Assembly (NCBI GenBank): GCA_947630185.1
Contig: CANRGT010000009.1
Span: 4,996-68,995 of the forward strand
DNA: 64,000 nt
Direction of reading: 5' to 3'
Origin: an uncultured Clostridia bacterium
Lineage (GTDB): Bacteria; Bacillota; Clostridia; TANB77; CAG-508
Part shown: positions 4,378-52,662 of the stretch, piece by piece
Position numbering within the stretch: position 1 is the first letter of the stretch
Layout: every line of letters begins with the position of its first letter
The notes under the pieces: model-generated
Database searches by the model: none
Told to the model about the DNA's origin: nothing
Seen by the model: the letters and a program-made list of their open reading frames with translations, nothing else
Translations under genes and position numbers: made by a program

Positions 4378-5203
4378 ATGAACTTTTTATTAAATTATTG
4401 TAAAGGTATTTTAATTGGTGCTGGTGCTATTTTACCTGGTATTAGTAGTGGTGTATTTTGTGTGATTTTCGGCATCTACGAAAAATTAGTAAATAGTGTT
4501 TTAAATATATTTAAAGATTTTAAGAAAAATTTTATCTTTCTTTTGCCTTTTTTTCTTGGTGCACTTACTGGTATTTTTTTAGTTGGAAAATTGCTTAATT
4601 TTCTATTTACTTTTTATCCGATGCCAACTAAATTTTGTTTTATTGGTCTAATTATTGGTAGCATACCTGTTTTGTGTAAAAGAGCTAATAATTCTAAAGG
4701 TTTTCGCCTTCATTACCTTATATTTTTAGCTTTTGCTTTTTTGATTGGACTTTTATCTATTGGGCTTGAAAAGTTTTTATCACAATCGCTTAACATGACT
4801 CTAGTCAGTAGTAATTTAAATAATAACTTTTTGTATTTCATTTTATCTGGGTTTATTATGTCTGTTGGAATTGTTATTCCGGGCATCAGTAGTAGTGTTA
4901 TTTTAATGTGCCTAGGTGTATATTCTATTTATTTAAATGCTATTTCTAGTGTAAATATTGCAGTTTTATTTCCTATGGCAATTGGATTAGTTATTGGCTC
5001 TATTATTTTTTTAAAGGCTATCCAATTTTTATTTGCTAACTATTATTCACATACTTTTTATATGATTATTGGTTTTGTGTTAGGTTCAGTTTTGGTTATC
5101 TATCCTCGGATTCAGTTTTAATTTAGAAGGATTAATTTCACTTCTATTACTTGCTTTAGGCTTTTTTGTTGGATTAAAATTTGAAAACTTAGAAACTAAT
5201 TAA
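4378..5203 (+). CDS. DUF368 membrane protein (PopT-type polyprenyl-phosphate transporter family); frame interrupted at zero-frame CGG 5107-5109
   Basis: Contains two PGISS(G/S) motifs typical of DUF368. The zero frame stops 3 codons after CGG. The +1 frame (GGA at 5108) continues GFSFNLEGLISLLLLALGFFVGLKFENLETN, a final TM helix, to TAA at 5201-5203. Confidence 0.75.
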
Positions 5204-5279
5204 CTGTTAATGAAATTTAAAAGCTGAAATACTATGTTTTTTACTTGCAAAACTTAGTGTTTTCAGCTTTATATTAATA

Positions 5280-49959: not shown

Positions 49960-50049
49960 GGCTTGAATAATATAAAACATTTTAATAATTATATCGATTA
50001 ATTTATATATTTTAACTTGAATAATTTAAAAACTTATTTAATAAAATTA

Positions 50050-50083
50050 AGAATAGAGATTTATATTTCTCTATTCTTTTTTA
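50050..50083 (+). terminator. intrinsic terminator after the HD-domain gene
   Basis: AGAATAGAG-10 nt-CTCTATTCT followed by T5. Confidence 0.65.
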
Positions 50084-50109
50084 TTGTGAAACAACAAGGT
50101 TCTCTGGTA

Positions 50110-50140
50110 CCCACCCACAATCTTTGATTGTGATGGTGGG
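50110..50140 (+). promoter_or_regulatory. GC-rich hairpin in the dapB 5' region (candidate attenuator or regulatory structure)
   Basis: CCCACC-C-ACAATC tttg GATTGT-GAT-GGTGGG, a 13-bp interrupted stem. It lies 30 nt upstream of the dapB SD, and AGGTTCT occurs three times around it. Confidence 0.3.
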
Positions 50141-50170
50141 TGAGGTTCTTATATTTATTTGGGAGGTTCT

Positions 50171-50920
50171 ATGATAAAACTATTGATAAATGGTATAAAT
50201 GGGAAAATGGGTCAAGAGGTTATAAAAAGTTTAAAAAATTACCCTGATATTTGCTTAGTTGGCGGATTAGATAAAGTTACTAGTAGCAATAGCACCTACC
50301 CTACTTTTCAAGATTTTAATTTCGTTTCAGAAATGCCAGATATTGTTATTGACTTTTCTGTTCCAGAAGCTACAATATCACTTTTACCAAATTTAGTTTG
50401 TAAAAGTATTCCTATTGTAATTGCTACTACTGGTTTTAATAAAGATGAGCAAAATCAAATTCTAGATGCTTCCTTAAAAATTCCTGTTTTTCAGTCTGCT
50501 AATATGTCATACCAAATTGCTTTAATGGGAAACATTTTAAGTCAAGTATCTAAAGAATTACCTAATTCAGAAATTGAAATTGTAGATGTTCATCATAATA
50601 GGAAATTAGATTCCCCAAGTGGTACTGCTCTAATGCTTGCAGAGAAAATAAATAGTGCAAATAATAATAAATTTTATTACGAATTTAATAGACTTAATAA
50701 AAAGGAAAAAAGAAAACCTAATGAAATTGGTTTTTCTAGCATTAGAGGTGGTAATATTGTAGGTGAGCATCAAGTTTTATTTTTTGATGATAATGAAGTT
50801 TTAGAAATTAAACATACTTCTTATTCTAGGAGCATTTTTGCAGATGGTGCAATTAAGGCTGCTAAATTTTTGGTAGGTAAAAAAGCTGGAATTTATGATA
50901 TGGGTGATTTATTCAGTTGA
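50171..50920 (+). CDS. dapB: 4-hydroxy-tetrahydrodipicolinate reductase
   Basis: Begins MIKLLINGINGKMGQ, with HHNRKLDSPSGTAL. GGGAGG lies before ATG 50171. Confidence 0.9.
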   Translation: MIKLLINGINGKMGQEVIKSLKNYPDICLVGGLDKVTSSNSTYPTFQDFNFVSEMPDIVIDFSVPEATISLLPNLVCKSIPIVIATTGFNKDEQNQILDASLKIPVFQSANMSYQIALMGNILSQVSKELPNSEIEIVDVHHNRKLDSPSGTALMLAEKINSANNNKFYYEFNRLNKKEKRKPNEIGFSSIRGGNIVGEHQVLFFDDNEVLEIKHTSYSRSIFADGAIKAAKFLVGKKAGIYDMGDLFS

Positions 50921-50966
50921 AAACATAAAAATCATTTCATAAATGTTCTGTTATTTTAGAATTTTA

Positions 50967-50995
50967 TTGAAATATGTTTAAAAATAAAGTATAAT
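50967..50995 (+). promoter_or_regulatory. promoter of the candidate toxin mRNA
   Basis: TTGAAA, 17-nt spacer, TATAAT. Confidence 0.55.
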
Positions 50996-51045
50996 AAACA
51001 CATCCTTTTCATTAAGGAAATCTTTTTGAAAGGGAGGTGAGTAAT

Positions 51046-51135
51046 TTGTCATCTTACGAATTAATTTGGCGTCTAATTGTTTTATTATTACTTAGTAATG
51101 ATAATCAAGAAGATAGTCAAAAAACTCATGATTAG
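51046..51135 (+). CDS. 29-aa hydrophobic peptide, candidate type I toxin (Fst/holin-like-toxin style)
   Basis: GGGAGG lies 8 nt before TTG 51046. Peptide is MSSYELIWRLIVLLLLSNDNQEDSQKTHD. The 5' UTR segment CCUUUUC can pair with GAAAGGG and would sequester the SD. Confidence 0.5.
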   Translation: MSSYELIWRLIVLLLLSNDNQEDSQKTHD

Positions 51136-51148
51136 TGCAAATCTAATC

Positions 51149-51178
51149 AAAGCGGTCTGGTCAACCGCTTTATTTTTT
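51149..51178 (+). terminator. intrinsic terminator of the candidate toxin mRNA
   Basis: AAGCGGT-ctggtca-ACCGCTT followed by TATTTTTT. Confidence 0.7.
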
Positions 51179-51180
51179 GC

Positions 51181-51252
51181 AAAAAAAATGAGATATGTGG
51201 TCAACATATCTCGAGTAATTGTCATCTTACAAACAACTCTCTTGCTTAAGCT
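51181..51252 (-). ncRNA. about 70-nt convergent sRNA, candidate antitoxin
   Basis: It has its own promoter and terminator (GAGAUAUG-uugacca-CAUAUCUC plus AU8). It contains UUUGUAAGAUGAC-AAUUACUC, which is complementary (21 bp including one G-U, with one bulge) to GAGUAAUUUGUCAUCUUACGAA spanning the toxin start codon. Confidence 0.55.
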
Positions 51253-51258
51253 AAATAT

Positions 51259-51287
51259 AGTATACTACTTTTTTTATTATATGTCAA
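51259..51287 (-). promoter_or_regulatory. promoter of the candidate antitoxin sRNA
   Basis: Minus strand TTGACA (51287-51282), 17-nt spacer, TATACT (51264-51259). Confidence 0.55.
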
Positions 51288-51294
51288 ATTTTTT

Positions 51295-51326
51295 AAAAAT
51301 ATTCTCCTTTAAAAATATTCTCCTTT
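51295..51326. repeat. perfect tandem duplication, 2 x 16 bp (AAAAATATTCTCCTTT)
   Basis: Read directly. It lies between the divergent sRNA promoters. The minus strand reads AAAGGAGAATATTTTT twice. Confidence 0.9.
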
Positions 51327-51338
51327 AAAAAAAATTGT

Positions 51339-51367
51339 TTGACAATTAAAATAATTCATAGTAAAAT
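51339..51367 (+). promoter_or_regulatory. promoter of sRNA A
   Basis: TTGACA, 17-nt spacer, TAAAAT. Confidence 0.6.
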
Positions 51368-51371
51368 AAGA

Positions 51372-51457
51372 ATAGGAAATGGAAGCCACAAAAGTGGTTC
51401 GCCAGATTTAGATAAAAAAACACATCTAAAATGGGCAAATTACAGATGTGTTTTTTT
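51372..51457 (+). ncRNA. about 85-nt sRNA or orphan leader (copy A of the AUAGGAAAUG module)
   Basis: AUAGGAAAUGGAAGCCACAAAAGUGGUUCGCCAGAUUUAGAUAAAAAAACACAUCUAAAAUGGGCAAAUUACAGAUGUG plus U7. Collinear with copy B (2620->2530). No ORF lies downstream because the next gene is convergent. Confidence 0.5.
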
Positions 51458-51463
51458 ATTATA

Positions 51464-51976
51464 TTAGAATATATTTACAATTTTAAGTGCACTTTTTTCT
51501 TTAATATGTTTTAAAATAAATGCACAATTATCTAAGCTTTCTACTGCAGTTTGATAATCCTTTGTTTCAATATTTGCCTTTAATTTAGTAAGCTCTGTTT
51601 TAACTTTTTCTAGTTCATTGTGTTCAATATAATATGACATTGTTTCATCTTTTTCTTCCCACAAATTTTCTATATCTTCCATCTTTTTTGTGCTTTCTTC
51701 TTGCTCTTTATTTACATCTAAACTTTCTTTTTTGCTTTCATCTGTTTTAGAATCTTCATTTTGATTTTCATTCTGTTTTTCATCTGATTTACTATTTTGT
51801 TCCTCATTTATTTTAGAACTTTCTTCACTTTCATTTAATTTGTAAATTTTTTCTCTTAATTCACTTAAATTTTTCGACATTGCTTCTACTGCACTATTTG
51901 TGTTATTTTGTGTAATAATGTTTGCTATAATAATAACTACTATTACAACAAATATGATAATTATTTGTTTATACAT
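51464..51976 (-). CDS. DUF4363-like membrane-anchored protein
   Basis: 170 aa with an N-terminal TM and an acidic low-complexity linker. It overlaps the stop of the upstream DUF421 gene by one base (the first base of its start codon, 51976, is the last base of that stop), the usual DUF421/DUF4363 pairing. Confidence 0.55.
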   Translation of the reverse strand: MYKQIIIIFVVIVVIIIANIITQNNTNSAVEAMSKNLSELREKIYKLNESEESSKINEEQNSKSDEKQNENQNEDSKTDESKKESLDVNKEQEESTKKMEDIENLWEEKDETMSYYIEHNELEKVKTELTKLKANIETKDYQTAVESLDNCAFILKHIKEKSALKIVNIF

Positions 51977-52662
51977 TATGCACCTTTCCCCTTTTTATTT
52001 TTTTCTTGGCAAAAAATTTGCCCTTTTCCATTATAGGTAACTATTAAAGCCTCTTGTGGTTTTATATTAAATTTTTCTACTTGCTTTTTAAGCCAATTTT
52101 CATCTTTTCCAATTTGTTTTAAATTTTCTGTCATAATTCTTCCGTCTACTACTAAATCATAAGGTATGCCCTCATAATCTGGCATTATATTAAAATCTTC
52201 TGGCGTTGTATTCCTTTTGTTTGGCTTTTGAATAACAGTAATCTGTCCACTTGTTTCTAAAATAGCATATTCTACATCTCCTATGTTTACTATGTTATTT
52301 CCTCTTAGCCTTTCTTGAAGTTCATTTAATGTAAATCTTTCTTTTATTAGTGCTTTTTCGTCTATTTTTCCACGATATATTAAGATAGTTGGCTTCCCAC
52401 ATAGAATTTCTCTTATTCTCATACTTTTCATATTCATTATTGAAATTAGTAGATGCATTACTAATAAACCAAGTATTGGTGTGATTCCGTTCCAAATTGG
52501 TATTCCCGTGTCTGACATTGGAATTGATGCTAAATCTGCTATCATAATAGATATTGCAAGTTCAAATGGTTGAAGTTGTCCTATTTCTCGCTTTCCCATA
52601 AATCTCATAACGATTAGTACTATTATGTATAAAAAAATTGTTCTAATAAGTGTAACTAACAT
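51976..52662 (-). CDS. DUF421 (YetF-like) membrane protein
   Basis: 228 aa. Contains MRFMGKREIGQLQPFELAISIMIADLAS, typical of the YetF/YdfS family. Confidence 0.75.
   Translation of the reverse strand: MLVTLIRTIFLYIIVLIVMRFMGKREIGQLQPFELAISIMIADLASIPMSDTGIPIWNGITPILGLLVMHLLISIMNMKSMRIREILCGKPTILIYRGKIDEKALIKERFTLNELQERLRGNNIVNIGDVEYAILETSGQITVIQKPNKRNTTPEDFNIMPDYEGIPYDLVVDGRIMTENLKQIGKDENWLKKQVEKFNIKPQEALIVTYNGKGQIFCQEKNKKGKGA

Follow-up and report, generated by a model that had tools for sequence, protein, structure and literature searches.

Anatomy of the cassette downstream of dapB

The DNA analyzed was a stretch of 64,000 nucleotides from an uncultured Clostridia bacterium, here called the window, with a GC content of 27%. 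Within it, a dapB gene carrying the Pfam domains DapB_N and DapB_C (50159-50920) and a DUF4363 gene on the - strand (51464-51976) lie on either side of a small cassette. The limits of the cassette were placed at 50925 and 51291, with no strand assigned to the element as a whole, by alignment with two close relatives that lack it, L001 and L002. It is about 330-365 bp long and contains two predicted, convergent transcription units.

RNA I, the putative peptide mRNA, would be transcribed from a + strand promoter, TTGAAA-17-TATAAT (50967-50995), and RNA II from a - strand promoter, TTGACA-17-TATACT (51287-51259). Both had been proposed in the original prediction, which was made from the sequence alone, and a consensus scan recovered both at these positions, each with a score of 11/12. 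In 2.8 kb, both rank among the top three promoter matches. The consensus scan detected 23 promoter-like hexamers against 17.8 expected, and a scan of the 2.8 kb detected 6 terminator-like sites against 0.7 expected.

The predicted RNA I is ~177 nt long (about 51002-51178, + strand, with ends deduced from promoter and terminator) and its fold has an MFE of -51.4 kcal/mol (z = -5.87). At its 5' end, a stem-loop spans 51003-51035, in which UCCUUUUCA (51003-51011) pairs with UGAAAGGGA (51027-51035). As the original prediction had proposed for the 5' untranslated region, this stem covers the Shine-Dalgarno (SD) sequence, burying 4 of 6 SD bases. The SD, GGGAGGTG (51032-51039, with GGGAGG at 51032-51037), lies 8 nt upstream of a TTG codon at 51046 that opens the 29-codon ORF MSSYELIWRLIVLLLLSNDNQEDSQKTHD (51046-51135, + strand; TAG stop at 51133-51135). 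A hairpin surrounding the stop codon, GAUUAG/CUAAUC (51130-51148), is present in the RNA I fold just before the intrinsic terminator (51149-51178), which consists of a hairpin at 51149-51171 with the loop CUGGUCA (51157-51163) and a T-run to 51178. Other reading frames were considered and set aside. The in-frame GTG at 51037 is an implausible start, as it falls inside the SD GGGAGG. An 83-aa + strand ORF (51077-51328) crosses strong terminators and is without a good SD. A 45-aa ORF on the - strand (51088-51225), which begins with ATG, runs antisense to the peptide gene and has a hydrophobic C-terminus, crosses both terminators without a convincing SD and is probably spurious.

RNA II was predicted to be an RNA of ~70 nt with two hairpins (about 51252-51181, - strand, with ends estimated in the same manner), in agreement with the size proposed originally, and its fold has an MFE of -19.3 kcal/mol (z = -4.06). 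It ends at its own intrinsic terminator (51212-51181), with a stem at 51212-51190, a U-run at 51189-51181 and the loop UGACC, corresponding to + strand 51199-51203. The scan thus bore out two separate terminators arranged tail-to-tail, one for each RNA.

The two units are linked by a direct repeat, whose copies at 51039-51057 and 51213-51230 are one T apart. The first copy lies in the putative RNA II target (51039-51060, + strand), which was divided into block A, just 3' of the SD, and block B, the start codon plus codons 2-5. The second lies in the RNA II segment that can pair with the start region of RNA I (51213-51233, - strand), with block B in the 5' hairpin loop. When written out by hand, the duplex comprised 8 bp, one bulged U and 13 bp including one G-U, confirming the originally described 21 bp with one bulge and one G-U. 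Its energy came to roughly -27 to -30 kcal/mol. When the RNA II 5' part was dinucleotide-shuffled 1000 times, none of the shuffles reached the observed -31.6 kcal/mol against RNA I. A further feature, missed in the original prediction, is the complementarity of the two terminator loops: the word TGGTCAAC is common to both, at + strand positions 51158-51165 and 51198-51205.

A dapB-anchored scan of species genomes was used to examine the site. The closest DapB matches were rabbit-gut MAGs with 93-94% identity, and all others had an identity of 61% or less. In L001, the sequence passes from ~30 nt after the dapB stop into a conserved promoter (equivalent to 51339 in the window), and the 365-bp cassette is absent. 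In L002, the interval of the cassette is occupied by a frameshifted NUDIX gene on the - strand (4766-5274), and the cassette seems to have replaced a NUDIX gene at this site. BLAST with the module and the peptide detected no second copy in the rest of the window or in 27 dapB-anchored loci, so synteny showed absence or replacement only. Neither terminal inverted repeats nor target-site duplications were seen at the cassette edges. The original association with dapB was therefore abandoned: the cassette is free-standing, is missing here in two close relatives and occurs in many other contexts.

Several other features were noted beside the cassette. A 16-mer, TTTAAAAATATTCTCC, is perfectly duplicated in tandem at 51292-51323, so that the - strand reads AAAGGAGAATA twice; this appears to be a duplicated remnant of the ribosome binding site of a NUDIX gene like that of L002. 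A third strong promoter, TTGACA-17-TAAAAT (11/12, + strand), precedes a short terminated RNA within 51339-51460, and this promoter with the first ~35 transcribed nt (65 nt in total) is 98% identical in L001 and L002. In L001, the RNA from the corresponding promoter (4803-4940) converges on a very hydrophobic ORF of 37 aa, MIEVALLKITYLLFYGIIGITVINIALVITILLLLHR (5049-4939, - strand), which has the SD GGAGG and has a bidirectional terminator in common with the convergent RNA. This pair looks like a second, different type-I-TA-like cassette, of which the window would have kept the sRNA part alone. Related ORFs of 38 aa were found in three other loci (L086, L135 and L141).

Co-variation across the module family

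Homologous peptide/sRNA pairs were found by two routes. A phmmer search with the peptide against 1.84 billion representative proteins returned 9 clusters (E 3e-8 to 5e-4), all with SSYELIWRLI[VI]LLLLSN followed by a polar tail, and the contigs of these clusters carried the whole module beside unrelated genes (radical SAM, YebC, HD/MarR, DUF1294). A degenerate DNA pattern for the peptide core matched two IMG/VR contigs and at least 120 stretches of metagenome sequence, most of them of human or animal gut origin. From the pattern matches, 104 unique modules were extracted among the matches listed; their left flanks formed at least 33 clusters, corresponding to distinct contexts, in host DNA with a median GC of 27%. 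The module was conserved as a whole, promoter to promoter, across the family.

In the two IMG/VR contigs (L041, 147-2923, and L040, 1458-2414), the module is flanked by a phage integrase on one side and a CI-like HTH/Peptidase_S24 repressor on the other, and an ERF recombinase follows downstream; judged from its genes, this site is the lysogeny region of a temperate phage. In other loci (L028 at 250-430, L116 and L050/L055), about 40 to 180 nt of extra DNA separates the RNA I and RNA II terminators, and therefore the two transcription units need not abut.

The control elements of both RNAs recur in these modules. Scored in 92 modules among the matches listed, the RNA I promoter keeps the -10 TATAAT and has a weak -35, for a score of mostly 9/12. 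In the same modules, RNA II promoters scored 12/12 in 48 and 11/12 in 33, that is, 11-12/12 in 81 of 92; a strong RNA II promoter opposite a weaker RNA I promoter is an asymmetry typical of type I TA loci. The 5' stem had 90.6% canonical pairs among the matches listed and was also predicted by RNAalifold, with G-C/A-U exchanges in its inner helix, and GGAGG of the SD was nearly invariant in the family alignment. In other classes, CAAAGA/UCUUUG or GACUAG/CUAGUC takes the place of GAUUAG/CUAAUC around the stop codon, suggesting that the stop-codon hairpin is a conserved structure. The RNA II terminator stem had 98.7% canonical pairs, with 4 of 9 compensatory, among the matches listed, and RNAalifold agreed. 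Compensatory changes thus accompany the conservation of the 5' stem and of the terminators of both RNAs. The two-hairpin shape of RNA II recurred in other classes, generally with the complement of block B in the 5' hairpin loop and that of block A in the 3' arm of the hairpin.

The start-region repeats differed between classes and agreed inside each module, as seen with TTGTCATCTTAC, GTGTCTTCA, GTGAGTTCATTTGATTT, ATGACATCC, TGACATCGTATG and TTCTTTCGATTTG. Block A read GAGTAAT, GTGCAA, GTGAACAT or GTGTACA in different classes; block B, spanning the start codon and four or five codons after it, varied as well, and the RNA II copy changed along with both. In an alignment-free comparison of RNA I start regions with RNA II 5' parts from 44 distinct modules among the matches listed, cognate pairs had a mean duplex energy of -31.6 kcal/mol (sd 3.8) versus -18.6 kcal/mol (sd 6.9) for non-cognate pairs. 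A MAFFT-based count for the same duplex gave only 59% canonical pairs; this figure is weak because variable spacers shift the MAFFT alignment out of register, and the energy comparison was used instead.

The terminator loops fell into ~8 classes among the matches listed (GGTCA, CGGGAA, CGTCCA, CGGACA, CGACGA, CTGCGA, CCGACA and GACT). The longest word common to the two loops averaged 6.6 nt in cognate pairs versus 3.0 nt across classes. In MAFFT alignments of RNA I plus RNA II chimeras, the loop-loop cells were 83% canonical, with double-sided changes in 5 of 8 pairs, and slid controls gave 18-47%. Within one module, the same word stands in both loops, yet the terminator stems are unrelated. 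Gene conversion between repeats accounts poorly for loops that match while the stems differ; the simplest explanation of the matched loops is selection for loop-loop contact. With respect to the YUNR motif, inspection found CUGG in the RNA I loop CUGGUCA of the window, and several other classes (CGGACA, CGGGAA and ACGACGA) are without a U in this loop.

The original prediction had invoked the RNA I/RNA II logic of the pAD1 par locus, and had named conservation of the repeat in homologous loci as a point on which that idea could fail. The repeat copies proved both conserved and co-varying in >100 homologous modules, which is strongly in its favor. Collectively, comparison of these modules shows the predicted anatomy, the conservation of promoters and terminators and the co-variation of both interaction sites, and the matching changes in >100 gut-metagenome copies show that the predicted RNA I-RNA II pairing is selected.

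The peptide, a proposed mechanism and alternative explanations

The peptide consists of a short, predicted hydrophobic helix, ELIWRLIVLLLL, followed by an acidic polar tail. In codons 4-16, the amino acids are dictated by the DNA search pattern, and invariance there is not independent evidence of conservation. A search of the collected loci with an RNA II signature returned 108 modules, of which 107 had already been found through the ORF and the remaining one was L028, with its insertion; conservation of the core peptide could therefore not be judged without bias, and codons outside the pattern were used. At the position of the TTG, the proposed start of the 29-codon frame, 45 homologous modules have GTG, 34 have TTG and 15 have ATG, which makes a valid start in 94 of 94 among the matches listed. 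Also among the matches listed, codon 2 encodes Ser as TCA, TCT or AGT (a TCN/AGY switch), or Thr, and codon 3 encodes Ser without exception; Ser occupies codon 17 in 39 of 43 cases and Asn codon 18 in 36 of 43; 85 of 94 modules encode peptides of 27-31 aa; and the tails, although variable in sequence, invariably abound in N, D, Q, E, S and K and carry a net charge of -1 to -4. Leu, Ile, Arg and Val codons vary synonymously across the family. These patterns of substitution show that the predicted ORF is under protein-level selection.

The strictly hydrophobic run is 11-14 residues long, including a conserved Arg, and the segment has a conserved Glu/Arg pair. No Pro or Gly occurs in ELIWRLIVLLLL among 37 distinct peptides in the matches listed. 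By hand calculation with a 19-residue window, Kyte-Doolittle hydropathy was ~0.7 versus the usual transmembrane threshold of 1.6. The doubt about toxicity that the original prediction had attached to its short hydrophobic stretch is upheld, and so short a hydrophobic peptide may differ in its action from Fst toxins, which span the membrane.

We propose the following mechanism. RNA I would be transcribed from a modest promoter and translated into the 29-aa peptide, at a level kept low by the weak start codon, the 5' stem that hides the SD and RNA II. RNA II would be made convergently from its near-consensus promoter. Overlap between the two RNAs is improbable, and their complementarity would stem from short words that both units carry in direct orientation. 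First contact is likely to be kissing between the two terminator loops, perhaps with further kissing between the RNA II 5' hairpin loop and the RNA I start-codon hairpin. Pairing would then extend, in an order of steps that we infer, to a duplex of ~21 bp that starts just 3' of the SD and includes codon 5; this duplex would block 30S binding and may form an RNase III substrate. The terminator-loop word and the start-codon block would act as programmable address words that set specificity.

The comparative data refute the idea that the cassette is a constellation of chance motifs in AT-rich intergenic DNA, or a leader or 3' element of dapB. Promoter-like hexamers do exceed expectation in this 27% GC window, but the whole unit is kept in >100 loci with unrelated neighbors and is absent after dapB in close relatives, and the shuffled RNAs never attained the duplex energy; the probability left to such an origin is negligible. 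An RNA-only element, either an interacting pair of non-coding RNAs or a miniature mobile element with an incidental ORF, would account for the strong structure of RNA I and for the large share of conservation that falls on RNA features (the 5' stem, the stop-codon hairpin and the terminators). This explanation is nonetheless quite improbable given the evidence on translation: the nearly invariant SD is optimally placed, the start codon varies in identity and is always valid, codon 2 switches between Ser codon families, synonymous changes accumulate, and the length of the peptide and the composition of its tail are conserved. The plain edges of the cassette likewise speak against a mobile element. 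We are highly confident that the cassette is a real antisense-controlled small-peptide unit.

The same RNA logic could control a small regulatory or membrane-associated protein that is not a toxin, with no toxin-antitoxin or addiction function, and we regard this as unlikely. In its favor are the short hydrophobic segment with its Glu/Arg pair, the lack of resemblance to any known toxin in Pfam, NCBIfam, PHROGs or PDB, and the occurrence of intact ORFs without a cognate RNA II. In these alleles (L060, L065, L085, L128 and L137, representing a type seen in 9 or more contigs), the promoter, SD, ATG and a 28-aa ORF are intact, and unrelated sequence has been swapped for the right half of the RNA II terminator and for the RNA II 5' part and promoter; L113 carries a complete module at the same site. 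The 229-kb contig that carries L065 also contains another module, L042, which belongs to a different specificity class. Judged from its sequence, the L060-type allele is hard to reconcile with strict addiction or a strongly lethal peptide, unless another copy protects the cell or expression is negligible. Against a harmless product stands the layered repression characteristic of harmful ones, which combines weak starts (79 of 94 modules among the matches listed), the SD stem and an antisense promoter of consensus strength. A patchy accessory distribution, the phage lysogeny site and frequent pseudogenized alleles also fit a toxin-antitoxin system. Apparently decayed peptide genes recurred in independent samples and included a frameshift through a 1-nt change in an A-run (L032-L034), conversion of the stop TAG to TGG (L035/L036), loss of both the stop codon and RNA II (L031) and truncation after codon 17 (L147). 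A true toxin-antitoxin pair, in which the peptide would be harmful, remains likely, and we consider the cassette to be probably a free-standing par-like type I toxin-antitoxin system of a previously undescribed family. On balance, we also favor the view that this par-like type I family is abundant in uncultured AT-rich gut Clostridia and their temperate phages, with two address words that define ~8 or more orthogonal classes.

Homology searches have found very few type I toxin-antitoxin systems in Clostridia (PMC6563280). The >100 natural variants described here, with both RNA contact sites co-varying, form a ready mutational dataset on antisense specificity and on the evolution of kissing-loop initiation, and are a possible source of orthogonal pairs of RNA regulators. 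In abundant uncultured gut bacteria, the family also serves as a marker of intergenic sites that vary between strains and of a phage lysogeny module, and, should the peptide prove toxic, it could be turned into a tool for counter-selection or stabilization in these organisms. The peptide family is new, with an unusually short hydrophobic helix; the regulatory principle was already known. For specialists in RNA and toxin-antitoxin biology, the family is of moderate to high interest, owing to the natural co-variation dataset and the abundance in uncultured gut Clostridia.

Comparison with known type I systems

The peptide matched no Pfam family, including the Fst toxin model, and no sequence in PDB, which includes the Fst and PepA1 structures, at E up to 10 in either case, and was likewise without a match in NCBIfam and PHROGs. 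An exact look-up of the 32-aa product gave no match, cmscan of 50000-52500 against Rfam at E up to 10 yielded sub-threshold, unrelated matches only, and the module had no match among GenBank phages or PLSDB plasmids. In the literature, we found no paper on the module, no occurrence of the motif ELIWRLI in papers and no source that names the family.

Among systems described in related bacteria, the type I modules of Clostridioides difficile (CD2517.1/RCd8, CD0956.2/RCd10 and others) resemble the module in occurring in Clostridia, in accessory regions and prophages; they have been proposed to stabilize mobile elements, and their toxins are unannotated small proteins (PMC5961336, PMC6563280). These toxins, however, are 50-53 aa long and their antitoxins overlap the mRNA extensively, whereas the module encodes 29 aa and uses short repeated words and loops. 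In Bacillus subtilis, bsrG/SR4 and txpA/RatA are also convergent mRNA/antisense pairs in prophage-like regions, and SR4 binding is loop-initiated (PMC3834814), but these pair through a true 3' overlap and encode longer, unrelated toxins. The SprA1/SprA1AS (PepA1) system of Staphylococcus aureus is a par-related type I system whose functional pairing, according to the summaries in PMC8594479 and PMC7472228, falls outside the 3' overlap and, as predicted for the module, at the translation start. Unlike the module, SprA1/SprA1AS has RNAs with a 3' overlap, and its peptide PepA1 has a PxxxGC motif; no sequence relationship was detected.

The par loci offer the most extensive likeness. They have convergent promoters, the repeats DRa and DRb, a bidirectional terminator whose loops start the interaction and a 5' stem-loop over the ribosome binding site (Weaver 2020, PMC7472228). 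Both par of Enterococcus faecalis pAD1 (RNA I/Fst and RNA II) and chromosomal par have convergent promoters, as predicted from sequence for the module. In both par and the module, a toxin mRNA (here that of a putative toxin) of ~180-210 nt is paired with an sRNA of ~65-70 nt; DRa and DRb correspond to blocks A and B, as direct repeats from the SD to the start codon, and the loops are complementary; a 5' stem-loop hides the SD of a gene that starts with GTG or TTG; the peptide is ~30 aa long, with a hydrophobic N-terminal part and an acidic tail; and the interaction sequences vary between copies, conferring specificity. The label "Fst-style" of the original prediction holds for this layout of the peptide but not for membership in the Fst/Ldr family, whose published signature is a transmembrane helix, a conserved Trp before the charged tail and a P/D/S/TxxxG motif (PMC7472228). 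The module peptide is without the P/D/S/TxxxG motif and has no Trp between helix and charged tail; its Trp, residue 8, precedes the Leu run, and its helix-tail junction is S/G-N. As judged from sequence, the module has the RNA-level features of par except for a common terminator, and its peptide has none of the features that define Fst/Ldr.

The terminators mark the principal difference in RNA organization. Unlike par, with its one bidirectional terminator, the module has two separate tail-to-tail terminators with unrelated stems, a family-wide trait, and its transcripts probably do not overlap, with the units separated by 40-180 nt in some members (L050, L116 and L028). In a module with separate terminators, loop complementarity does not arise automatically as it does in par, and must therefore be kept by co-variation. 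Because the two terminators are separate, the match between their loops would be direct evidence that selection maintains a kissing-loop contact. The comparative evidence from the module family strongly supports a par-like reading of the predicted cassette.
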